Under the pieces are notes generated by a model. That model did no database searches. It was not told the DNA's origin and worked only from the letters and a program-made list of their open reading frames with translations. The position numbers were made by a program, and so were the translations under genes. DNA of 64,000 nucleotides from NCBI GenBank assembly GCA_965204095.1, contig OZ241991.1:2376720-2440719 (forward strand), given 5' to 3'. This stretch comes from Bryobacterales bacterium. GTDB taxonomy: Bacteria > Acidobacteriota > Terriglobia > Bryobacterales > UBA6623. This document shows, one piece after another, positions 28,765-36,869 of this stretch (the first letter of the stretch is position 1; every line of letters begins with the position of its first letter).

Positions 28765-28817
28765 ACCGGAGTCCGGAACCCTCCTGCCGAATACCCTGTT
28801 CTTCCGAGCCCGGGCTC

Positions 28818-29536
28818 TAACCTGCATTTCTCACCACCCGACGGCGGCCGCACGCGAAAAAAGCCGTGATTCGTGTTTCGTGAAAAACCTTACAGGCGGT
28901 GTTGCCGGTGCGGGGGACGGTCGCCGCCCATGCCGCGCCATAGCCGCCCCATGCCGCGCCACGCCGAGGGCAAGTCGATCCGGGTGATTGCCGACATCCT
29001 GTCATCATGCTAGGCCGGCCGGGGCGAAAAAAAAAGACTGAAGGGCTTCAGTACCAACAGGTACCGTTCAAGCCACGTGATTCGTGAAAAACATAAAGGC
29101 CGTGACTCGTGTCTCGTGATTTGTGTTTCGTAAAGACCTTAAAATCAGTGGCTTATGGCTGGTGAACGCCTGGGGAACCCTGATTCGCGACCCGCACGGA
29201 CTGCGCCTCGCCGCCTCCGTATGCTCATGCCTAGCAGGCCGGGGCAGAAAAAACAAGACTGAAGGGCTTCAGTACCAACAGGTATCAAACGTGCCACGGG
29301 AATGGCCGTGATTCGTGTCTCGTGTCTCGTGTTTCGTGAAAACCATTGGTGAGGCTTGGTTCGCTCCAGAAGAAATGTCTGACGGCCTGTGAACCGTAAA
29401 TGCTGTGTTGCGTGTCTTGTAACCCGAGCCTGCAGGAGGCGATACGGCCGCTACACCTGCGCCAAGCGGCGCGCGCATCGTCCTGACGGTCCTCTCACAC
29501 ACTTCGCCTCGCCACGTGGGTGAGAAAAGCAGGCTA
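28818..29536 (+). mobile_element. Composite/nested MITE-like repeat (copy 7) with an internal duplication of about 222 bp
   Basis: The 5' TIR TAACCTGCATTTCTCACCACCCGACGG and the 3' arm ...CCACGTGGGTGAGAAAAGCAGGCTA bracket four heptamer blocks. They also bracket two copies of GGCCGGGGC-A(6-9)-GACTGAAGGGCTTCAGTACCAACAGGTA (about 29011 and 29236). Confidence 0.7.
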
Positions 29537-29790: not shown

Positions 29791-29866
29791 GGGCGCGTAG
29801 CTCAATTGGTAGAGCAAGTGACTCTTAATCACTAGGTTCGGGGTTCGATTCCCTGCGCGCTCACCA
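29791..29866 (+). tRNA. tRNA-Lys (anticodon CUU), CCA encoded
   Basis: I folded the cloverleaf by hand. Acceptor GGGCGCG/CGCGCTC, D arm GCTC-AATTGGT-AGAGC. Anticodon stem AGTGA/TCACT with loop CT-CTT-AA, and T arm CGGGG-TTCGATT-CCCTG. Discriminator A plus CCA. Confidence 0.9.
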
Positions 29867-30004: not shown

Positions 30005-30298
30005 TTAGCGGCCGAGTTCTTCCTGAACAATCGATAGGCGCTTTTCGATCAATGCGAGAATCACGCGAGCCGACCCATCTGGTCGGCGCCGTCCTTGCTC
30101 CCAATTCTTGAGCGTGCCCAACGGTATGCCGATGCTCTTGGCAAAAGCCGGTTGCGAGAGTCCCGTCTTGCCTCGGATCGCCACGACATCGGGCTCGGGC
30201 ACCTCGATGTCATGCACCGTGAACCCGTCTCGTTTGCCTCCCAAGTAGCCTCGGGCATCCTCGAACCCGGCAATGACCTAGTCGTATGCCTTGCTCAT
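30005..30298 (-). pseudogene. HTH (XRE/MqsA-like) antitoxin interrupted by an in-frame TAG
   Basis: Reading from ATG 30298 gives MSKAYD-TAG(30280-30278)-VIAGFEDARGYLGGKRDGFTVHDIEVPEPDVVAIRGKTGLSQPAFAKSIGIPLGTLKNWEQGRRRP. This is the usual N-terminus plus HTH of this antitoxin class. Only 30005..30244 (TTG start) remains as an ORF. Confidence 0.5.
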
Positions 30299-30545
30299 GG
30301 TTTACGTCCCCAGTAATCTTGAATCAGGTTTTTTGCGGCCGTGGTCAAGGCCACTCGTACTCGTGCGCTGAGATTCGCTTTCTTATTCTTGGTAAAGACG
30401 GTGAGCTACAAGCAACGTCATGGGGAAAGTACACCGCCCAGAACGTAGCGCAACTGCCGTACGCGAAGACGAAGTGAAGGGATTAATACAGGAGCTACGA
30501 ATCCTTTACCGGGGTTGGTGCGTCGCAGACTGCATGTCTCAGCCG
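30295..30545 (-). pseudogene. Decayed toxin gene upstream of the antitoxin (weak DUF497/BrnT-like resemblance)
   Basis: Three frames carry consecutive pieces: ...APVLIPSLRLRVRQLRYVLGGVLSP* / TLLVAHRLYQE* / KKANLSARVRVALTTAAKNLIQDYWGRKP*. The last TGA overlaps the antitoxin ATG (ATGA), as in TA operons. The family assignment is by motif resemblance only. Confidence 0.3.
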
Positions 30546-30550
30546 CCCGT

Positions 30551-30645
30551 CCCTCAAAAACTTCCCCCAGGAGCCCGCAGGAGGCGTTTTCAGCCTTCGG
30601 TTGGACCTAAACTGTCTACGGAAATGGCGTTGTGGGGGTGGCTTC
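30551..30645 (-). repeat. E2 intergenic structured repeat, copy a
   Basis: The minus strand reads ...GTTTAGGTCCAACCGAAGGCTGAAAACGCCTCCTGCGGGCTCCTGGGGGAAGTTTTTG. It aligns with the copies at 30971, 32734, 35930 and 36573. Confidence 0.6.
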
Positions 30646-30653
30646 GTCTCTGC

Positions 30654-30863
30654 TCAGCGACAAACGTAGCCGATGTAGATCGCCAGGACCGCCGCGGGAA
30701 TCCACCCGAGAACCGCGCCCCACAGCAAGAACCACACCGCTAGCGAGCCCCAGGCGGCGAGGAAGACGATGGCCGCGACCCAACGGCCGCGGTTGCTCTC
30801 GAGCACGTCAATCATCACGTAGCGAAGGGCGGTGAGCAGCTCGAGTCGGGCGGCTTTGCTCAT
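30654..30863 (-). CDS. small hypothetical membrane protein (69 aa)
   Basis: MSKAARLELLTALRYVMIDVLESNRGRWVAAIVFLAAWGSLAVWFLLWGAVLGWIPAAVLAIYIGYVCR has two predicted TM helices. The longer 117-aa ORF upstream runs through repeat sequence. Confidence 0.4.
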   Translation of the reverse strand: MSKAARLELLTALRYVMIDVLESNRGRWVAAIVFLAAWGSLAVWFLLWGAVLGWIPAAVLAIYIGYVCR

Positions 30864-30970
30864 GGGAATCTTCGGGCGGGGACGGACTAAAAAAGGGGGG
30901 CGGTCCGCGGGGATTCGAGTGCGTCTCTCGCAGCCAGAGGATCCTACACCCGCCAGCACGCACGGACGAG

Positions 30971-31110
30971 CCGACCGCTCGGGACCGCCCTCTGCCCACC
31001 ATAGCACCGCCGCGGCCGTTTCCCGCCTCAGGATCCCCGTCCTCAGAAAAAACCCGCCTCAGGAAGCCCATAGAGGAGTTTTCGGCCTCGCGGTGAACCG
31101 AAAGTACCTG
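30971..31110 (-). repeat. E2 intergenic structured repeat, copy b
   Basis: The minus strand reads GAAAACTCCTCTATGGGCTTCCTGAGGCGGGTTTTTT...GGAAACGGCCGCGGCGGTGCTATGGTGGGCAGAGGGCGGTCCCGAGCGG. Confidence 0.6.
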
Positions 31111-31236
31111 CCATCCTCGCCTAAAAGACGCTGATGGCGGGTTCCGACGACGCCGATCTCGTTGGCAAAGAGGGGTGCCCGTGGGAGTTGGTTCGCAGAA
31201 AGAGGCAGTCCCAGTCGCCGACTGCTCTAAGTCTTG

Positions 31237-32298
31237 CTAGGCGGCGGCCCCACCCCGTCTGATCTTCTGCCACGCATCATGCACGTTGTTCGCGAGCGTG
31301 GTGATCGCCTCCTTGTGCAGCTCCCATTTCTTCTCGTCCAACAGACAATACCATTGCTCCGAGACTCGTTTGGTCGGCGGCGCATTAGGTGGTTCCTCGA
31401 ACTTGAATGGGATTGTCCCTTTCTTGTCCTGAAACTGTTCCCAACAGACATCGACTGCTGCTGGATAGAACGTGACGCGTAGCTTGCCGCTTTGGTCGAT
31501 CACTACCGAATGAGAGCCGTAAACATTGACATCGTCGGGAAGCGTGATTTTGGGCATATAAAAGGTGAAGCCAGACTTCGTTGGATACCCGTTAGAGGCG
31601 ATGCCTAGAGCTTCGACCGCATCCTGCCAGAGGCTCGCTATGTTTAGATCCCTAGCCCGCTCTGCAAGTGTACGGCGGCGCTCACTGGCTGTGTCTGATC
31701 TGCGGATGTCACCGCCATCAACACTTCCTTCTACCTGTCTGGCCAGAATCATTCTGTCTCCGCATTGGTACCCGTGGAATGTCAAGAGAGAGATGTCTAC
31801 TCCTCTCTCCACTAGAAACTCGACCATGCGGTGCGCTCGGTCGTCAGCACCGAGGCCGACCAGCTCTATTTTTATCGGCCTCAAGGAGATCAGCTGCTTT
31901 CCCTGTCGGTCGCCGTACCACGATTCAAAATCATCGATCTTGTCAACTTCGTTCTTCCCCGAGTGATTGGCAATGTAAGTTGCCAATTCGGTTTCCGTCA
32001 GGGATTCAAGATAGGAGCAGTAATCAATGGCCTGTGCTACGGCGTCCCGCGTAAGTTTTTCTCGCTTCAACTCGAACACAACGAGTCTGCCGTCCCCGTC
32101 CACGCCGAGCAGATCGAGAAAGCCACCGTCGATCGGCGTCTGACGGCCCACAAGCGTCAGGCCCGGCATCAGCATGTCCGGATTCCTGACCAGCACCTCC
32201 TCTAGCAAATGCTCTGTTTCTATCCGATTGGTCGATTCCACCGGCTCTGCAGCTTTTGATGAGCCGTCAACCTCCCATATTCTGATATCGTTCGTCAT
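31237..32298 (-). CDS. NucS/DUF91-like PD-(D/E)xK nuclease domain protein with an unknown C-terminal domain of about 160 aa
   Basis: 353-aa ORF. GFLDLLGVDGDGRLVVFELKREKLTRDAVAQAIDYCSYL matches the D...E-x-K core of NucS/DUF91-type nucleases. Hand counts on three 60-nt lines give 42-55% GC, against about 65% for flanking core genes. Confidence 0.65.
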   Translation of the reverse strand: MTNDIRIWEVDGSSKAAEPVESTNRIETEHLLEEVLVRNPDMLMPGLTLVGRQTPIDGGFLDLLGVDGDGRLVVFELKREKLTRDAVAQAIDYCSYLESLTETELATYIANHSGKNEVDKIDDFESWYGDRQGKQLISLRPIKIELVGLGADDRAHRMVEFLVERGVDISLLTFHGYQCGDRMILARQVEGSVDGGDIRRSDTASERRRTLAERARDLNIASLWQDAVEALGIASNGYPTKSGFTFYMPKITLPDDVNVYGSHSVVIDQSGKLRVTFYPAAVDVCWEQFQDKKGTIPFKFEEPPNAPPTKRVSEQWYCLLDEKKWELHKEAITTLANNVHDAWQKIRRGGAAA

Positions 32299-32309
32299 GT
32301 TCCGACCTC

Positions 32310-32460
32310 GGTTTCCGAACCTCGCCGTCCGCCGCCCGAACGGCGGCGTTCTTGCTCATCAAACCTAAACCAACCAGGGCTGGCTGGGCGGAGGCCGCCG
32401 CAGCGGGTTTCGCCGTGGGCGCTTTTTCTTGTCGTTCCCACATGGCGGTTCCTGACGGCC
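32310..32460 (-). repeat. E2-like repeat, degenerate copy c
   Basis: The minus strand GGTTGGTTTAGGTTTGATGAGCAAGAACGCCGCCGTTCGGGCGGCGG parallels GGTTTAGGGTCC...GAGAAAACGCCTCC...GGCGCGGG of the other copies. Confidence 0.35.
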
Positions 32461-32463
32461 CTG

Positions 32464-32733
32464 CTAGCGCCGCAGGCGCTCGACATCGATCACCTCACCG
32501 CCGCGGCGGACCTCGGCCAACGGCTCGTGGCGGCGTGCGGGTTCGGGATCCTGGATATCGAGCTGTTGCAGCTCCCGCTTCAGCCGAAACGCCCTCTCTT
32601 CGGCCTTGAGGGTCTCCTTGAGCGCCGGGGCCTTCGCCGGCAACTCCCGACGCAGTTTGAAGGCGATCTCGGAGAGCCCCGCGTGGGCTTCGGCGGCGGT
32701 GCGGACGAGCTCAAGGCGTTCGTCTTCGCTCAT
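32464..32733 (-). CDS. small hypothetical protein (89 aa), intact member of a 3-copy family
   Basis: MSEDERLELVRTAAEAHAGLSEIAFKLRRELPAKAPALKETLKAEERAFRLKRELQQLDIQDPEPARRHEPLAEVRRGGEVIDVERLRR. GGGAG lies upstream. Paralogous remnants are at 36304-36572 and 35858-35929. Confidence 0.45.
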   Translation of the reverse strand: MSEDERLELVRTAAEAHAGLSEIAFKLRRELPAKAPALKETLKAEERAFRLKRELQQLDIQDPEPARRHEPLAEVRRGGEVIDVERLRR

Positions 32734-32960
32734 GGGAGCCGCTCCCGGGACAGGGAACTGCCCCAACCATACCACCTCGGCCACGCGTTTCCGCCGGCAC
32801 CGGTAAAAAACCCGCGCCAGGAGCCCCGTGGAGGCGTTTTCTCGATCGACCCGGACCCTAAACCTGGGTTTACGCCTTGAGAAACGCCATTGACGGGTCC
32901 TGTTGGGTCCCGCACTGCCCCTTGGAGCGGGGCAGGAAGACCTCCTCGGTCCGCCCGGAG
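32734..32960 (-). repeat. E2 intergenic structured repeat, copy d (most complete)
   Basis: It contains nested imperfect palindromes: GGCGTTTCTC...TAAACC-CA-GGTTTA...GAGAAAACGCC, then CGCCTCC-N-GGCGCGGGTTTTTT, then GGTGGTATGGTTGGGGCAGTTCCCTG. Confidence 0.6.
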
Positions 32961-33136
32961 AAACAGATGCCGAGAGTCGGAACGGAAGATTGCGTAGAAT
33001 GAATCGATCCCCGTCAGTAAGGGGTGAAGCCGCGCGACCGGTGCCGACGGGGCGGCAAGAGGGGGCCAAGCCCGCCATGCGTCGCGACCCGAAAAAGCGG
33101 CCCCCGACAAAGGATCGTCGGTCGCAAGGTGGCTAG

Positions 33137-33652
33137 ATGGCCGAGGCGAAGTCGGAAGATCTCATCCCGGTCGAACGCATTGCCGCTCAGATCTACGTGA
33201 TCCGTGGGCAGAGTGTCATGCTTGATTCCGACCTGGCCGAGCTGTACGGCGTGAGCACCAGCCGACTGAACGAGCAGGTGAAACGCAACAGGCGGCGGTT
33301 CCCTGACGATTTCTCCTTTCAGCTCACCGCCGAAGAGGCTTTGATGTCGCAATTTGCGATATCAAAGGGCGGCCGGGGAGGGCGGCGTAAACCACCCCGA
33401 GTCTTCAGCGAGCAGGGAATGGCCATGCTGTCTTCCGTGCTGCGTTGCGACCGCGCTGAAGACGTGAACGTGGCAATGATGCGGACCTTCGTGCGGCTAC
33501 GCCAAGTGCTGTCCAGCAACGAAGAACTGGCACGCAAAGTGGCCCAGCACGATCAGAAGATCGACATTCTCTTTGCGCACTTCAGAGGTCTGTTGGAGCT
33601 ACCCGAACCGCCGAAGAAAGCCCGGATTGGGTTTCACGTGACGGGTGAATGA
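33137..33652 (+). CDS. ORF6N domain-containing protein (KilA-N-related DNA-binding)
   Basis: IYVIRGQSVMLDSDLAELYGVSTSRLNEQVKRNRRRFPDDFSFQLT...FSEQGMAMLSSVLRCDRAEDVNVAMMRTFVRLR is the canonical ORF6N pattern. Confidence 0.8.
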   Translation: MAEAKSEDLIPVERIAAQIYVIRGQSVMLDSDLAELYGVSTSRLNEQVKRNRRRFPDDFSFQLTAEEALMSQFAISKGGRGGRRKPPRVFSEQGMAMLSSVLRCDRAEDVNVAMMRTFVRLRQVLSSNEELARKVAQHDQKIDILFAHFRGLLELPEPPKKARIGFHVTGE

Positions 33653-34068
33653 CGAGCGCTAGCTGAGCGCGGTCCGCGGCGGTTCGCGTGCACTCTCGCG
33701 GCCGGGGAGTCCAAGCCTCGCCGCCCGCGACGTCCTCCCCCGAAGTGTGCAGTTTTCGGTTGCCATTGACAACGCTCACGGCTGCGCCGTTCGCGTCACC
33801 CAAGGCTCCCTTTTGAGGCAGGGAAGGGCTGCAATTCGAGTGCCAAGTCGAGGGCAAGCCCCGGAAATCGGGAGAAAGCGTCCCGTTTCATCCATCTGCC
33901 CCCTCGCCTGTACGTTTTGCCGGAGTCGAACACGCCGGAACTCTGCCAAACCGACCACCGCGAGCTCGATGCCGGAAAAACCACGCCCTCAACTCACCTA
34001 CAAGCGACGATCACGGCGGTCCCGCACCTCCAGCACCCCGGAATCGGGCCGGTTTAACCCCATCACAT

Positions 34069-34240
34069 TCAGGTGAATTTGAGCAGTCCGACAGTCAGGG
34101 CGACGATGCCCCGCCTTGAGGTCGGCGACATCGGCTTTGGTAGCCACGGTGTCATTGTCGGCCAGCGTATCAACCACAGCATCGGCCTGGAGCTTGCGGA
34201 CGACTCGACTAATGCCGCCCAATCCATCGAATCATGGCCA
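34069..34240 (-). pseudogene. Possible DUF1640-like gene remnant (multiple frameshifts)
   Basis: One frame gives ...RKLQADAVVDTLADNDTVATKADVADLKAG. A second frame gives the TM-like tail GIVALTVGLLKFT*. The resemblance is weak. Confidence 0.2.
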
Positions 34241-34340
34241 AATCTACCGAACCCCACAAGGTGCGCGCCTGCGGTGCTGGAGAAAGCCATCCCGGCCCTC
34301 ATCTAGAATGGATCCCGGTTGCAACGAGGGGGATTGTCGA

Positions 34341-35009
34341 ATGAACCGGATCGCCGAGAAGGAGGACAAACTGTTCGAGGCTTGGCCGTCCCGACAGGAG
34401 TCGTTCGTCCCGGACGGTCTCGTTGACGCCGACGAATATGCCCGCAGCCGCGTGAAGCTCTTGTTCGTCCTCAAGGAGGCGAACGCTCCAGGTGAGAGGG
34501 GAGACCTACGAGAGTTTCTTCGAGGTGACAGCTGGGGACCGACATGGAACAACGTGACGAGGTGGGTCGAGGGCATTGAAGGGCTTCCGTGCATCGTGCC
34601 GTGGGACAAGCTTTCGGAGGTCGACATCAATCGACGAAAGCGGGTGTTGCGGAAGATCGCGGCCGTCAATCTGAAGAAGGAACCCGGCGCCGGGGTGGCG
34701 GACTACGACCAGTTGAGAGAGGCGACGCAGCGCGACCGCCAGTCCATCTCCGAACAGTTGTCCTTGTATGCGCCCAACTACGTGATCTGCTGCGGCACGG
34801 ACGTGAGTAACCTGCTCTTCGAGGCGGAGCCCATCGGTGTGTACCCACGAAACGCCGATGACTGGAAGTCGACAAGCCGCGGGGTGCGGTACAGGATTGA
34901 GAACGCGGTGCCCCACATCGCGTACCACCATCCTCAGGCCCGAATGCCGGGCAACCTCATCCACTATGGGCTGATCGACGCTGTGGCAGAATTGGCGAAG
35001 ATATATTGA
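34341..35009 (+). CDS. hypothetical protein with UDG-superfamily-like motifs
   Basis: The start is taken at ATG 34341 (GAGGGGGA 8 nt upstream). LLFVLKEANAPG and HIAYHHPQAR resemble motif A (GE/Q-x-PG) and motif B (HPS/A) of the uracil-DNA glycosylase superfamily. The assignment is tentative. Confidence 0.4.
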   Translation: MNRIAEKEDKLFEAWPSRQESFVPDGLVDADEYARSRVKLLFVLKEANAPGERGDLREFLRGDSWGPTWNNVTRWVEGIEGLPCIVPWDKLSEVDINRRKRVLRKIAAVNLKKEPGAGVADYDQLREATQRDRQSISEQLSLYAPNYVICCGTDVSNLLFEAEPIGVYPRNADDWKSTSRGVRYRIENAVPHIAYHHPQARMPGNLIHYGLIDAVAELAKIY

Positions 35010-35062
35010 CGTGTGTAGATCGGCTTTGTGTCTCTAAAATCCCCCGGCCGCCGAAAGTGCGG

Positions 35063-35395
35063 CTAGGCCGCCGTTGTTTCGTCGGGCCACTGCCCGAGAC
35101 GGTTCCTCTGCTGCGCCAGGTCGTAGGCGGCTTGCCGCCGCAGCCAAGAGTCGGCGGTACCCCATCCTGCCGCTTCCAGCTTCAGAGCCAGTGACACCGA
35201 GATGCTGGCCCGCCCGTTGAGAACGCGGGACAGCGCGACCCGCGACACGCCGATCTTGCGCGCCGCCTCAACCACCGTCAGGGTACTTTCCCCCAGTGGA
35301 TCCTCCATGCAGCCGTGGTAGATGTGTCGCCCGGGGGGCGACGGATTGCGCCGCAGCCAGGCGTCGTACGGCACGCTGTCGTTGCTCTTGCTCAT
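35063..35395 (-). CDS. higA: HigA family antitoxin (HTH)
   Basis: TVVEAARKIGVSRVALSRVLNGRASISVSLALKLEAAGWGTADSWLRRQAAYDL is the HigA HTH pattern. It lies 8 nt downstream of the higB stop. Confidence 0.8.
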   Translation of the reverse strand: MSKSNDSVPYDAWLRRNPSPPGRHIYHGCMEDPLGESTLTVVEAARKIGVSRVALSRVLNGRASISVSLALKLEAAGWGTADSWLRRQAAYDLAQQRNRLGQWPDETTAA

Positions 35396-35403
35396 AACTC
35401 CCC

Positions 35404-35684
35404 CTAGTGGTAGTCCGTCAGGTCGACATCCAGGACGTGGCCGCCCTCGACACGGAACACAATCCGCCACAGGCGCGATACCCTCACCGCCCACTGGCCT
35501 TGCGGGTGCCCTTCAGAGGATGCAGCCGGTAAAACGGTTCGGACAGTTCGCTGAGCGCATCCGCTCCGTCGAGAGCCAACAGGATGTTTCGGATGCGCTC
35601 GACGTGTGCCGGGTGCAGCTTGCTCGAGTCGCCGCGCACGAAGAACCGCCGCAGGCCGCCGTGCCGGATACTGCGTATCGCCAC
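35404..35684 (-). pseudogene. higB: HigB (RelE-superfamily killer protein) with a 1-nt frameshift
   Basis: GTG 35684: MAIRSIRHGGLRRFFVRGDSSKLHPAHVERIRNILLALDGA...LHPLKGTRK, then the frame shifts at CGCAAGGCCAGTGG (GG where GGG is needed). It continues GQWAVRVSRLWRIVFRVEGGHVLDVDLTDYH to TAG 35404. Confidence 0.7.
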
Positions 35685-35857
35685 CTAGATCAATGTATCG
35701 CATGAATAGCAGAAACAGCACCCACAACACAGCAGGCCGAACAGGGCGCGGTCGCGGGCCTGCTCAACTCACCGTGCGCCATCGTAGCGCAGGCTGTAGC
35801 GCTTAGGTGTGTCTTTTCTCCTTTTTACTCCCTCCAAAGGAGGAGAAGAAAGCGCAT

Positions 35858-35929
35858 TTATACATCGCTGAGCGCGGCGTGGGCCTCGGTAATGGAACCG
35901 AGCAGCTCAAGGCGTTCGTCCTTGCTCAT
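35858..35929 (-). pseudogene. Truncated copy of the small-ORF family (first 23 codons)
   Basis: MSKDERLELLGSITEAHAALSDV* is homologous to the N-terminus of 32464..32733 and is preceded by an E2 copy. Confidence 0.5.
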
Positions 35930-36052
35930 CGGATTCGCGCCCAAGGCAGGGAACTGCCCCAACCATACCAGCCCGGAGGCAAAACGCCCATCGCCGTAAA
36001 AAACTCGCGCCTCAGAGCCCGCAGGAGGCGTTTTCAGCGAGGAGGTGGACCC
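35930..36052 (-). repeat. E2 repeat copy f, proximal half (interrupted by the MITE at 36053)
   Basis: The minus strand reads GGGTCCACCTCCTCGCTGAAAACGCCTCCTGCGGGCTCTGAGGCGCGAGTTTTTTACGG...GGTATGGTTGGGGCAGTTCCCTG. Confidence 0.6.
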
Positions 36053-36235
36053 TAGCCTGCATTTCTCACCACCCGACGGCCGAAGCACGCGATATGACCG
36101 CCAGGACTTCGTTGCGCTTGCTTGCCGTGCTCAACGTACGGTTCAAGTACGTCTGCGCGCGCCAAGCGGCTCACGCCTTGTCCTGACGGCCCTCTCACGC
36201 ACTTCGTCTCGCCACGTGGTGAGAAATGCAGGCTA
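36053..36235 (+). mobile_element. MITE-like repeat, short variant (copy 8), inserted inside an E2 repeat
   Basis: TAGCCTGCATTTCTCACCACCCGACGG...CCACGTGGTGAGAAATGCAGGCTA. The flanks GGACCC|TA...TA|GCCACCTGGGATTTACGCC match the uninterrupted paralogous site GGACCCTAAACCTGGGTTTACGCC at 32848-32871. Confidence 0.85.
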
Positions 36236-36303
36236 GCCACCTGGGATTTACGCCAGGGAAACGCTTTGAAGGGTCTTTCTCAGGGCTCAACGTCGGGACC
36301 CTG
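36236..36303 (-). repeat. E2 repeat copy f, distal half
   Basis: CCACCTGGGATTTACGCCAGGGAAACGCTTTGAAGGGTC... parallels AACCTGGGTTTACGCCTTGAGAAACGCCATTGACGGGTC at 32857-32895. Confidence 0.55.
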
Positions 36304-36572
36304 CTAGCGCCGCAGGCGCTCGATATCGATCACCTTGCCACCGCGGCGGACCTCACCCAACGGCCCGCGCCTCTCGGGCGGGTCGGGATCGGTGAGATCG
36401 AGTTTTTGCAGCTCGCGCTTCAACCAAACGCCACCCTCTCAGCCTTGAGGGCCTCCTTGAGCGCCGGGGCTTTCGCCGACAGCTCCCGCCGCAGCTTGAA
36501 GGCGATCTCGGAGAGCCCCGAGTGGGCTTCGGCGGCGGTGCGGACGAGCTCGAGTCGTTCGTCTTCGCTCAT
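36304..36572 (-). pseudogene. Frameshifted copy of the small-ORF family
   Basis: MSEDERLELVRTAAEAHSGLSEIAFKLRRELSAKAPALKEALKAE... then a 1-nt indel relative to copy 1 (269 nt versus 270 nt) gives a stop at 36420. The remainder still aligns at the nucleotide level down to the TAG at 36304. Confidence 0.6.
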
Positions 36573-36735
36573 GGGATCCGCTCCCGGGGCAGGAATCTGC
36601 CCCCACCATAGCAGGGCCACAGCCGTTTTCCGCCTCTGGACGCCGACGCCGTAAAAAACTCGCGCCAGGGGCACCGCAGGAGGTGTTGTCGGCCTCACTC
36701 CGGCCCCCGCATACCTAAGCAATCCGTCTCGCAAG
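36573..36735 (-). repeat. E2 intergenic structured repeat, copy g
   Basis: The minus strand reads GACAACACCTCCTGCGGTGCCCCTGGCGCGAGTTTTTTACGG...GGAAAACGGCTGTGGCCCTGCTATGGTGGGGGCAGATTCCTGCCCCGGGAGCGG. Confidence 0.55.
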
Positions 36736-36869
36736 CGGGACCCGGAGCCGACATCCCTGGCCGCTGGGCGGTTCTTCGCTCGGCACGGGCGCTGATGCGC
36801 CCGCCGGTGCGTCTACCCGCCCTCTCCTGCGTCGCTTTGCATAGGGTTAAAGGGTAAAAGCGCAAAGGG

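Follow-up and report, generated by a model that had tools for sequence, protein, structure and literature searches.

The window analysed here is a stretch of 64 kb of Bryobacterales DNA that contains, to the right of a tRNA-Lys gene, an island of small genes. Between these genes lie five copies of a repeat of ~170 nt, E2, all on the minus strand. The features of the island discussed below are the following, in order of position (numbers with L denote related loci):

29791–29866, plus strand: tRNA-Lys(CTT), left island border (ARAGORN; Rfam tRNA, 71.9 bits)
30531–30640, minus strand: E2 copy A, partial (nhmmer E 4e-20, profile positions 14–132 only); block 1, GAAAACGCC core and T-run, without promoter box; 3' of the membrane-protein gene
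30654–30863, minus strand: gene (ORF) of a 69-aa protein (MSKAARLELL...) with two hydrophobic stretches
30864–30967, minus strand: "E3" spacer, from the copy B box to the membrane gene start, conserved with L006c, L025 and L026a
30968–31144, minus strand: E2 copy B (nhmmer E 3e-36); type II box TGCTATGGT at 30998–31006
31237–32463, minus strand: NucS_C / PDC-S11-like gene (31237–32298) and upstream spacer (32299–32463, "copy C" of the first-pass annotation)
32464–32733, minus strand: gene of an 89-aa protein (MSEDERLELV...), family unnamed, plasmid-associated
32735–32900, minus strand: E2 copy D, the exemplar (nhmmer E 1e-34); GGGAG ribosome-binding site 32742–32746; palindrome GGGGCAG-TTCC-CTGTCCC 32747–32764; predicted extended −10 TGGTATGGT 32766–32774; T-run 32805–32810; GAAAACGCC core 32833–32841; copy-specific nested palindromes 32846–32890
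33669–33733, minus strand: E3 relic beside the ORF6N 3' end (local alignment 44 versus shuffle mean 17, maximum 29)
35858–35929, minus strand: truncated 89-aa paralogue (ORF), 24 codons, MSKDERLELLGSITEAHAALSDV and stop
35931–36275, minus strand: E2 copy E (35931–36051 and 36237–36275; nhmmer E 9e-28 for 35931–36070, plus fragment); box TGGTATGGT at 35962–35970; interrupted by a MITE at a TA
36052–36236: MITE in copy E (inverted repeat I1), 185 bp; terminal inverted repeats 36052–36072 and 36216–36236
36304–36572, minus strand: second 89-aa gene copy, frameshifted pseudogene, 85% nucleotide identity to 32464–32733
36574–36739, minus strand: E2 copy F, right island edge (nhmmer E 5e-32); box TGCTATGGT at 36605–36613

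An nhmmer search of the window with a 21-copy profile returned five matches (E 3e-36 to 4e-20), all inside the island, and no further significant ones; the sixth-ranked match (36236–36275, E 1.3) is the part of copy E past the MITE. The repeat family described in the first-pass annotation is therefore real, has one orientation (minus) and is confined to the island, but is smaller and less structured than described. At least six copies had been claimed, whereas the search found five, four of them with the promoter box. The supposed degenerate copy at 32310–32460 and tail fragment at 33745–33850 align locally to the E2 consensus like shuffled sequence (16 versus a shuffle mean of 17, and 18 versus 18), compared with 188 for copy D as control. 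The spacer at 32299–32463 is not E2; its first ~100 nt natively flank the 89-aa gene on the 3' side, as they also do in L024. The E3 relic adjoins the tail fragment but differs from it. The splitting of copy E by a MITE was correctly recognized (21-nt perfect terminal inverted repeats flanked by TA). That E2 separates nearly every gene was overstated, as no copy is found upstream of HigBA, ORF6N, a 222-aa ORF or the NucS-like gene.

The tRNA-Lys gene and the antitoxin module are 82.6% identical in L002, the orthologous tRNA-Lys locus of a Bryobacterales MAG, which has retained its integrase; neither a direct repeat of the tRNA-Lys 3' end nor an integrase gene of any kind was found elsewhere in the window. 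The 69-aa membrane protein has no match in Pfam, NCBIfam, PHROG or PADLOC; homologues of its gene followed by E2 occur in L002, L003, L006 and L008, E2 coming after the gene in five of six loci, and the depth of its segment is 7–60x that of the NucS-like segment or the right flank (runs X4 and X5; X6 bins are uneven). The E3 spacer is the membrane gene's own upstream region. On the other side of copy B, the NucS-like gene (Pfam NucS_C, 7e-10; PADLOC PDC-S11, 4e-34) forms with its spacer a 1.2-kb unit that is missing from some sponge-metagenome contigs, one X5 contig skipping from 31243 to 32457. The 89-aa protein, without match in PDB, Pfam or PHROG, belongs to a family of 130 clusters, none of them named, found near ParA, RepA_C and toxin-antitoxin genes, some in contigs whose names are tagged _c. 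Its truncated paralogue, which would be driven by the predicted promoter of copy E, has the same N-terminus sub-type as the one after the E2 copy L026c.

Each E2 copy points the same way as the gene after it, and the similarity among repeats extends into the first ~10 codons of that gene (family D6). Copies without the box are located where no gene of the set comes next; equivalents of copy A lie after the same gene or at array ends in L006a, L003c, L003d and L008b. The box singled out in the first-pass annotation exceeds chance by far: CTGCCCCNACCATANC has three matches versus 0.2 expected, and TGNTATGGT has four in the 64 kb versus 0.36 expected, all four inside E2. TG and TATGGT do not vary in any of the 16 full copies, which come from eight loci, but the base between them does (G in eight, C in seven, A in one), which is the signature of an extended −10 element. 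Wherever a gene adjoins directly, the hexamer is 25–32 nt ahead of the ATG: the distance is exactly 32 nt in D, E and F and within that range in six more copies (L003b, L006b, L006d, L024, L026b and L026c), with GGGAG or GGAAG 8–9 nt upstream of the ATG. This conservation pattern, from which alone we infer activity, gives good support to the prediction that the 3' half of E2 (~75 nt) is a sigma-70-type promoter with the extended −10 TG-n-TATGGT. The conserved GGCGGAA would occupy its −35 position, an 18-bp palindrome (GGGGCAG-TTCC-CTGCCCC) would surround the transcription start and may be an operator, and the GGGAG ribosome-binding site and start codon would follow. A consensus promoter scan found no match, because there is no TTGACA-like −35.

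Conservation reaches ~20 nt to either side of the −10 element, beyond what a promoter needs. The complete box of L002 faces the 3' end of a convergent gene, and in L008a the next gene begins only ~180 nt further on, so that the box is not always in obvious use. In L002 and the MKWU metagenome loci, E2 3' halves are 85–96% alike ahead of different genes, which could reflect gene conversion or a second function.

The 5' half (~90 nt) comprises GGGTCC-type direct repeats, the GAAAACGCC core and the T-run, which most copies have but L006c and L026c lack. It can occur alone, both 3' of the membrane-protein gene and where arrays end, and is the most repeated part of E2 (core depth ~79 versus 9 in run X1). 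The hairpin reported ahead of the T-run is weak: the 42 nt 5' of it fold no better than shuffles (−6 to −14 kcal/mol, z −0.8 to +2.2), with a structure that differs from copy to copy, and the second pair of the CGCC/GGCG stem is broken in 12 of 21 copies, with no covariation. Likewise, the nested palindromes GGCGTTTCTC...GAGAAAACGCC and TAAACC..GGTTTA, taken for a family trait, belong to copy D alone; over the 21 copies, 38–51% of cells pair, as in shuffles (240 of 500 reach the observed value). The 5' half is not convincing as a terminator. Its candidate roles are those of upstream promoter DNA or of a binding region for a regulator; as a transcript-end signal it would be weak at best. The earlier idea of a terminator-promoter module spread by duplication thus came near to the data in its promoter half, though not in its terminator hairpin, and the spread looks like that of whole gene modules duplicating and recombining inside a mobile element, not of a repeat propagating independently.

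E2 copies cluster by type across genomes and not by genome. The closest pairs are B with L006c (94%, in both halves), E with L026c (87%), F with L024 (89%, 3' half only) and A with L026c (83%, 5' half only); the 5' half of F is only 60% identical to that of L024, which makes copy F a mosaic. The window copies, 53–74% alike among themselves, are thus old paralogues with mosaic halves. Between D and F, identity falls away from the gene, from 85% in the gene to 73% in E2 and 52% in the far 5' part. The gene after E2 is the 89-aa gene nine times and the membrane gene six times, the latter count including three copies (B, L006c and L026a) in which E3 intervenes before the gene or its remnant. Metagenome contigs join the modules in other orders, with change-over points in E2 at 32746, 32780, 32791, 32806 and 32822; these joints, from contigs of other organisms at 85% identity, are alternative arrangements and not observed recombination events. 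Only seven contigs at least 80% like copy D exist in run X1, and E2 has no match in viral contigs.

We favour, with moderate confidence, the view that E2 is not a recombination site but a conserved module between the genes of a mobile set, providing a sigma-70-type promoter and a stretch of homology. This view is built on the copies and their limits, the conservation of the motif, the absence of attC features, the genomic contexts and the mosaicism; from these we infer promoter activity, an operator, a role for the 5' half and a mechanism of recombination. Inside an integrative plasmid-like element, the genes flanked by E2, those of the 69-aa membrane protein and the 89-aa protein, would have been copied, cut short and joined anew, leaving multiple E2 copies. 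In related loci, the genes of this element include those of a Xer-like integrase, an HNH nuclease, ParA and RepA; E2 lies beside integrase-HNH genes in L003, L006 and L024, and ParA, RepA-like and SRAP genes are present in L003 and L008.

Short non-coding repeats between genes that can affect the transcription of their neighbours include the Correia elements of Neisseria and REP/BIME of enterobacteria, which carry terminal inverted repeats or strong palindromes and are dispersed in hundreds of copies. E2 is likewise short, non-coding and always intergenic, and its island houses a true MITE, so that it might be a non-autonomous dispersed repeat of this kind (MITE, REP/BIME or Correia-like), self-inserted between genes and with an outward promoter by chance. 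Yet E2 has neither the inverted-repeat or palindrome feature nor the hundreds of copies, and the surroundings of its copies showed neither terminal inverted repeats nor target duplications. Their 5' limits are ragged and track the neighbouring gene, the similarity runs into the coding sequence, and E2 is tied to two gene families across loci. Its copy number is low (five in 64 kb, in one island, and the seven X1 contigs), compared with a MITE depth of 22,000–130,000 in four runs (~9 for the genome in X1). For the first-pass annotation, lack of attC matches and of covariation together with scattered copies would have meant just another dispersed repeat; attC matches and covariation are both absent, but the copies lie at gene boundaries and show no genome-wide scatter. 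We consider this explanation unlikely.

A structured RNA (cis-regulatory leader or riboswitch, 3'-UTR element, or small or antisense RNA such as an antitoxin RNA for the small membrane protein) is a still less likely candidate. E2 does occupy 5' and 3' untranslated regions of small genes, and its 5' half always comes after the membrane-protein gene, whose product could be a type-I-toxin-like peptide. Nonetheless, E2 fold z-scores range from −1.0 to +1.35, the named helices do no better than shuffles, and Rfam gave no match, neither at gathering score nor with E allowed up to 5. Over 173 columns the RNAalifold consensus reaches only −14 kcal/mol; its covariation term is +0.38 and one of its 23 pairs is compensatory, in a test of low power given the limited variation among copies.

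It is highly improbable that E2, in particular the palindrome TTGGGGC-AGTTCCCT-GCCCCGG by the box, is the core site of a Xer-like integrase (plus HNH) system, that is, a non-IntI integron-like platform. The integrase-HNH genes stand divergently beside E2-gene units in L003, L006 and L024 and within 2–4 kb of them in L002 and L008, thus in five different surroundings; type-II copies part from type-I right after GGGCAG, inside the putative spacer, and L002 and L008a lose homology just past the right arm, share five more nt and then diverge. But the units next to the integrase are nearly always the same two genes, with no varied cargo, the change-over points are not fixed but spread over more than 75 nt, and the halves upstream of the palindrome are mosaic too. 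Moreover, the arms span only 5–7 bp, several copies have a degenerate form of the palindrome (78% of cells paired), box-less copies lack the palindrome and yet mark module ends, and the window has E2 copies with no integrase.

The lead reading of the first-pass annotation, which takes the E2 copies for attC sites and the island for a cassette array of a chromosomal integron or for a CALIN, was likewise unsupported and retains almost no probability: the attC model, the R boxes, the folds and the search for IntI all speak against it. The layout does recall such arrays, with a repeat between short, mostly co-oriented ORFs, many of them toxin-antitoxin genes or of unknown function, in an accessory island without nearby integrase (PMC4889954), and copy D has imperfect palindromes. 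Even so, no RYYYAAC...GTTRRRY pair within 50–160 nt exists anywhere in the window, and the copy D palindrome is GTT...AAC, the reverse of the attC order. A covariance model (R1) built from 13 real attC sites, class-1 attCs only, recovered 17 of 17 sites in control integrons (30–78 bits, one absent from training) but gave no match in L002–L008 or in the island, where its best score with filters off was 8.4 bits (E 1.3). Real attCs fold at −13 to −32 kcal/mol, with ends paired in 10 of 13, whereas E2 folds like shuffled sequence and its ends form no stable single-strand hairpin; it also lacks the R and L boxes and conserved AAC/GTT triplets. No IntI gene or pseudogene was found in the window by tblastn, and what related loci have beside their E2 arrays is a Xer-like recombinase and no IntI (it scores 28.5 bits on TIGR02249, where the cut-off is 265). 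In integrons, attCs resemble one another more within an array than between arrays, and cassettes seldom contain promoters (PMC4889954). By contrast, the E2 copies of one array are not homogenised, being less alike (53–74%) than each is to its counterparts in other loci, their gene partners are few and recurrent, and E2 has a promoter-like box and extends to the start codon.

A sigma-54 promoter (TGGTAT-N4-GGGGCA, with GG-N10-GC spacing), the upstream repeats being its enhancer-binding site, has negligible probability: GG and GC doublets do stand at sigma-54 spacing in 8 of 16 copies, but against the sigma-54 consensus the −24 GG is GC or GA in 8 of 16, including intact conserved copies (B, L006c, L024 and L026b), L024 has GT in place of the −12 GC, and no copy has the T residues of TTGC, while every copy retains TG-n-TATGGT.

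Returning to E2 as a promoter-carrying spacer, some known systems resemble it. The start-associated sequences (SAS) of Cluster K mycobacteriophages are 13-bp motifs at the ribosome-binding site, with a proposed role in translation, whereas E2 has ~170 nt with a promoter-like core. Like E2, they repeat a conserved motif immediately ahead of, and extending into, the translation starts of several genes of one mobile genome (PMC3203893). The closest analogue is found in T4-like phages, in their PeSL (promoter-early stem-loop) cassettes. PeSL and E2 alike are composite spacers, short and conserved, with a sigma-70-like promoter (predicted in E2) directly upstream of small genes of unknown function (PMC2839356, PMC4122927), and both lie in one orientation in a plastic region where exchanges between copies can account for the genes beside them being inserted, deleted or replaced. 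The mapped crossovers of PeSL fall between the −10 element and the ATG (PMC2839356, PMC4122927); one E2 change-over (32746) falls there and the others just upstream. There are differences as well. In PeSLs the promoter is a full consensus one and the stem-loop terminator is proven; E2 has an extended −10 only and an unconvincing stem-loop. PeSLs number ~50 per phage genome, E2 five per island. E2 resides in a bacterial integrative or plasmid-like element, not a phage, and has no sequence similarity to PeSL; mini-circles and promoter activity have been demonstrated for PeSL (PMC2839356, PMC4122927), while the promoter of E2 is a predicted one.

The element in the window is a decayed remnant beside tRNA-Lys, without integrase and with several pseudogenes. 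E2 itself is most likely a promoter-carrying spacer shared by the genes of a mobile set that is common in sponge-associated bacteria; once multiplied, such a spacer would serve, like the PeSL cassettes, as a homology stretch for further homologous recombination.

We lean towards a composite explanation of E2, in which this repeat family of about 170 nt is the promoter spacer of a mobile gene set. A profile of 21 copies finds exactly five in the window, all on the minus strand and all within the accessory island to the right of the tRNA-Lys gene. The first-pass annotation had counted at least six copies plus a tail fragment; the family and its conserved motifs are indeed present, but the copies are five, not seven.

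Genes and E2 copies of the island
29791-29866: tRNA-Lys(CTT), with the island to its right, up to about 36.75 kb
30005-30298: HTH antitoxin-like gene, interrupted by an in-frame stop near 30280
30531-30640, minus strand: E2 copy A, partial
30654-30863, minus strand: gene for a 69-aa protein with two hydrophobic stretches (the membrane gene)
30968-31144, minus strand: E2 copy B
31237-32298, minus strand: NucS_C / PDC-S11-like gene (PADLOC candidate defence PDC-S11, E 4e-34)
32464-32733, minus strand: gene for an 89-aa protein
32735-32900, minus strand: E2 copy D
33137-33652, plus strand: ORF6N / PDC-S05 gene (PADLOC candidate defence family PDC-S05, E 3e-50)
34342-35009, plus strand: 222-aa ORF adjoining the ORF6N gene
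35063-35395: HigA gene
35404-35684: HigB gene, frameshifted
35858-35929, minus strand: stub of an 89-aa paralogue, 24 codons
35931-36070 and, beyond a MITE, 36236-36275, minus strand: E2 copy E
36304-36572, minus strand: second copy of the 89-aa gene, frameshifted
36574-36739, minus strand: E2 copy F

The two sequences that drop out of the family, at 32310-32460 and 33745-33850, align to the E2 consensus at the level of shuffled sequence. By comparison with L024, a related locus from an ENA assembly, the 89-aa gene has its native 3' flank in the ~100 nt of 32299-32463 that follow its stop codon. A separate spacer, E3 (30864-30967), is the native upstream region of the membrane gene. A relic of E3 lies at 33669-33733, near the second discarded sequence and beside the 3' end of the ORF6N gene (a significant score of 44, against a maximum of 29 in shuffles), suggesting the loss of another E2-E3-membrane module there.

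The architecture of E2 was derived from 16 full and 5 partial copies; besides those of the window they come from L002 (a Bryobacterales MAG), from L003, L006 and L008 (one metagenome assembly) and from L024-L026 (three ENA assemblies).

Parts of E2, in gene direction
Optional 5' extension: GGGACCCGTCA..GCGTTTC..AAAYCCCAGG
Block 1: GGTAGTTnGGGTCCACC
Core: GCTGAAAACGCCTC-N-GGGCTCCTGG-N-GTTTTTTAC
Block 3: containing GGAGGCGGAA
Box: TG-n-TATGGT(T)GGGGCAG
Palindrome: GGGGCAG-TTCC-CTGCCCC
Last part: GGGAGCGGATCCC, with the ATG next

The box, noted as conserved at first pass, occurs well above chance (3 matches where 0.2 are expected, and 4 where 0.36 are). Its TG and TATGGT are invariant in all 16 full copies and the intervening base is G, C or A; fixed elements around a free base match the behaviour of an extended -10 promoter element. 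For copies D, E and F the distance from the hexamer to the ATG is exactly 32 nt, and for six copies of the related loci (L003b, L006b, L006d, L024, L026b and L026c, the suffixes denoting individual copies) it is 25-32 nt; a GGGAG-type ribosome-binding site stands 8-9 nt ahead of the start. The palindrome would straddle the transcription start, a typical operator position. A scan for TTGACA/TATAAT promoters, which is blind to the extended -10 type, found no TTGACA-like -35 element in E2. From these features we infer that E2 would have promoter activity. Five copies without a box (A, L006a, L003c, L003d and L008b) stop soon after the T-run and no set gene follows them; their ends and positions indicate that the 5' half of E2 goes with the gene upstream of it, and the 3' half with the one downstream. 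Among the possibilities raised at first pass was a terminator-promoter module spread by duplication: a promoter-containing module that spread by duplication is the best-supported reading, but the terminator part is not supported, the hairpin being no better than those of shuffled sequences.

E2 has conserved motifs and no conserved structure. The nested palindromes described at first pass are peculiar to copy D: over 21 copies, 38-51% of cells are paired, as in shuffles. Similarly, the hairpin reported before the T-run folds no better than shuffles (z -0.8 to +2.2), with structures that are inconsistent among copies, and one pair of its supposed CGCC/GGCG stem is broken in 12 of 21 copies, without covariation. 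Whole copies give fold z-scores of -1.0 to +1.35 and the alignment fold is weak (-14 kcal/mol, covariation term +0.38). We thus rejected a structured RNA, no signal having appeared in single-sequence folds, in RNAalifold or in pair counts for the proposed helices and the box palindrome. Searching Rfam 15, including its Acidobacteria motifs, returned the tRNA as the sole match at gathering score; with E up to 5 the island gave two weak matches, both within the NucS-like gene and none in E2. An intrinsic terminator was likewise discarded, as a consensus scan gave 9 sites against 7.0 +/- 2.5 in shuffles and the folds before the T-run were non-significant.

The island is a decayed remnant, without an integrase, of an integrative, plasmid-like element. 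The decay of many of its genes fits an old remnant of this kind, and a search of the 64-kb window turned up no gene for a tyrosine recombinase or an HNH protein, whether intact or decayed. No tRNA-derived att duplication was found at the far end of the island, and a likeness of E2 block 1 to the T-arm of tRNA-Lys, spotted by eye, was dropped for lack of support. The 69-aa and 89-aa proteins have no match in Pfam, NCBIfam, PHROGs, PADLOC or PDB, and the 222-aa ORF (34342-35009) has none in any of the libraries searched. Most of the runs containing the island carry sponge, coral-reef or marine metagenome labels. The locus of the Bryobacterales MAG, L002, is orthologous (tRNA-Lys and antitoxin module at 82.6% identity), the antitoxin module being followed by a DUF4143 ATPase, a full E2 and the membrane gene, with an integrase at some distance beyond. 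In L003, L006 and L024, a divergent integrase-HNH pair adjoins the E2-gene units and the shared homology begins at, or up to ~10 nt from, the integrase stop codon; L003 and L008 also hold ParA, RepA-like and SRAP genes. The 89-aa family comprises ~130 clusters, all unnamed; ParA, RepA_C and toxin-antitoxin genes accompany its more distant members on plasmid-like contigs, and these members have no upstream E2. These contexts define E2 as a spacer specific to one lineage of such an integrative, plasmid-like element; the idea that it is the 5' region of the 89-aa family at large was rejected, since members at 60-70% identity (L009-L015) lack it.

L006 (MKWU01005776, 1-2400 and 2441-3771) contains a CRISPR array that ends ~40 nt from the integrase stop of the integrase-HNH-E2 element, with type I-E-like repeats that translate as ...VHPRACGEQ..., and a Tn3-family transposon interrupts its NucS-like gene. 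On the 840-kb contig of L024 (1-8644), the integrase-HNH-E2-89aa unit adjoins a CBASS-like set with a SAVED/2TM effector and a DncV-like nucleotidyltransferase; an NB-ARC protein and Type ISP restriction fragments are further neighbours in this defence-island setting.

The genes that E2 accompanies are few: nine times it is the 89-aa gene, in other cases the membrane gene and in a single case a UvrD-like gene. The modules are ordered differently in the window and in L002, L003, L006, L008, L024 and L026, with E2 at the junctions: 89aa-NucS-E2-membrane gene in the window and L006, membrane gene-E2-89aa in L003, and a deleted membrane gene in L026; copy L003a has a chimeric start. Identity between the units of copies D and F drops with distance from the gene: 85% in the gene itself, 73% in E2 and 52% further upstream. 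The halves of one E2 copy differ in their closest relative: copy F is 89% identical to L024 in its 3' half and 60% in its 5' half, the 3' half of copy E is nearest to L026c, and the 5' half of L026c is nearest to copy A. In the sponge metagenomes X4 and X5 the membrane-gene (30632-31007) and 89-aa/E2 (32418-32887) segments are 7-60 times deeper than the NucS-like gene or the right flank, with a smaller and uneven excess in X6. Some contigs fuse the membrane-gene stop straight to a D-type E2, and metagenome contigs skip the 1.2-kb NucS-like unit (31243 to 32457) and carry hybrid E2 copies, whose change-over points are scattered over 32746-32822. Contigs with such alternative joins belong to other organisms and display arrangements rather than events caught in the act; inside a single genome, E2-to-E2 joints that "go back" look the same as paralogous arrangements. 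In the mechanism that we propose, gene modules would duplicate and then exchange homologously within the shared E2 spacer. The mosaic pattern is what module duplication and homologous exchange would be expected to produce, and not what a site-specific crossover at one nucleotide would leave.

The NucS-like unit itself (31243-32457, the NucS_C-like gene with its upstream spacer), missing from a high-depth sponge-metagenome contig of X5, is a cassette-like presence/absence variant without E2 involvement. Both of its junctions have TAGCARG right after the stops of the 89-aa and NucS-like genes.

A site-specific alternative would have the integrase-HNH pair recombine at the 22-bp box palindrome, TTGGGGC-AGTTCCCT-GCCCCGG, making each E2 and its gene a self-expressed cassette in an integron-like system unrelated to IntI/attC, with double-stranded sites and a promoter in every cassette. 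The pair does stand beside E2-gene units in five unrelated surroundings, but the same two genes make up the cargo almost every time and the positions of change-over are dispersed, for which reasons we consider this system very improbable.

The resemblance of the island to an integron cassette array or CALIN, with E2 as its attC, was the main suggestion at first pass. The R'' and R' boxes of attC sites are mutually complementary, with conserved triplets 5'-AAC ... GTT-3' at their ends (PMC4889954). Canonical boxes had already been sought in vain, and our regular-expression scan agrees: zero RYYYAAC...GTTRRRY pairs within 50-160 nt on either strand of the entire window. The outer palindrome of copy D is GTT...AAC, which the other copies do not conserve. 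Because this strict pattern overlooks some real sites, a control attC model was built from eight class-1 integrons of a plasmid collection, in which 13 attC sites were delimited; 10 of the 13 fold with their R boxes paired, at -13 to -32 kcal/mol. The resulting covariance model (R1), made from these 13 aligned sites including the R and L pairs so that its training was limited to class-1 sites, recovers all 17 control attC sites at 30-78 bits, the aadA16 site outside the training set among them. It found nothing in the island or in the E2-bearing loci L002-L008; with filters off, the top score over 29.5-37.5 kb was 8.4 bits (E 1.3). In an attC the single strand folds so that R and L boxes flank an unpaired central spacer, with some bases left extrahelical, and E2 lacks this architecture as judged with the class-1-trained R1. 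The island is not a CALIN, for which two or more attC sites must lie within 4 kb of each other on the same strand and intI must be missing from the vicinity: zero attC sites were detected, and absence of intI alone is insufficient.

A complete integron has, adjoining its array, a tyrosine recombinase with an extra domain of ~35 residues near patch III. The best tblastn match of IntI1 to the window has an E of 0.93. By profile score the integrase adjoining E2 in related loci is Xer-like: that of L006 reaches 105-107 bits on XerC and XerD models. On TIGR02249, where the cut-off lies at 265, it aligns just to profile positions 229-299 and scores 28.5 bits. In integrons, attC sites are more alike within arrays than between arrays (PMC4889954). 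The window copies of E2 are instead 53-74% identical to one another and 83-94% identical to counterparts in other loci, so that a sedentary chromosomal integron was rejected too. Moreover, integron cassettes seldom carry promoters (PMC4889954), and E2 contains a promoter-like box. With no R boxes, no attC-model match, no attC-like folding and no IntI, the integron reading does not hold, and it is close to certain that E2 is not an attC.

E2 also fails the defining tests of MITE/REP repeats, Rfam families and sigma-54 promoters. Terminal inverted repeats and target duplications were not seen around its copies, which number only five in one island, with about seven contigs in run X1. Genome-wide copy number was estimated from Logan contigs. 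Only seven X1 contigs resemble copy D, and two of these lie outside the window (2,873 and 1,711 nt), one with two copies ~950 nt apart; as their depths, 7.6 and 10.7, compare with 9 for the genome, a second E2 locus or a plasmid is probably present in the same organism. E2 is not a high-copy dispersed repeat. By contrast, the MITE that splits copy E, correctly recognized at first pass (185 bp, 36052-36236, perfect 21-nt terminal inverted repeats CTAGCCTGCATTTCTCACCAC, TA flanks), has every hallmark: terminal inverted repeats, target duplication and many dispersed copies. Its TA flanks suggest an IS630/Tc1-type target duplication. A relative of ~710 bp with the same ends and internal CGTGATTCGTGTTTCGTG tandem repeats occupies 28812-29530, just upstream of tRNA-Lys. 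The depth of the MITE, 22,000-130,000 in X1-X4 against ~9 for the genome in X1, marks it as extremely abundant. Sigma-54 promoters keep a GG at -24 and a GC at -12, spaced by 10 nt, without variation; the GG-N10-GC spacing in E2 had brought this type into consideration, and it was rejected because 8 of 16 copies have lost the GG and L024 has lost the GC. A phage origin was dismissed, no E2 having been found in viral contigs.

The nearest analogue of E2 is, by comparison of layout, the promoter-early stem-loop (PeSL) of T4-like phages. PeSLs are cassettes of a conserved sigma-70-type promoter and a stem-loop that terminates transcription, upstream of small ORFs in hyperplastic regions (PMC2839356, PMC4122927). 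Through recombination between them, with crossovers mapped to the stretch from the -10 element to the ATG, the genes they flank are inserted, deleted or replaced (PMC2839356, PMC4122927). E2 is alike in position, predicted promoter, orientation and mosaic evolution: the small genes downstream of it have no known function and belong to a plastic region, and its copies mark where relatives differ by indels and replacements. It differs in having no convincing stem-loop terminator (z -0.8 to +2.2, no covariation) and no -35 element, in being much rarer and in belonging to a bacterial mobile element, with zero sequence similarity. By this analogy E2 would work like a PeSL without being a member of the family.

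These findings alter no major open question. They nevertheless indicate that the look of a cassette array, with short co-oriented ORFs, toxin-antitoxin genes and repeats at junctions, can arise without integron machinery, so that integron calls need an attC model and not layout alone. Since the 69-aa and 89-aa genes both exceed the rest of the island in abundance in two sponge metagenomes and are unmatched, they may form the core of a mobile module that is common among sponge symbionts and as yet undescribed. The authors who described PeSLs noted that such plasticity was as yet without evidence in cellular organisms (PMC2839356). If the composite explanation is true, E2 would be the cellular counterpart of these phage cassettes, a shared promoter spacer that would make small accessory genes self-expressed and give them a common homology for shuffling.
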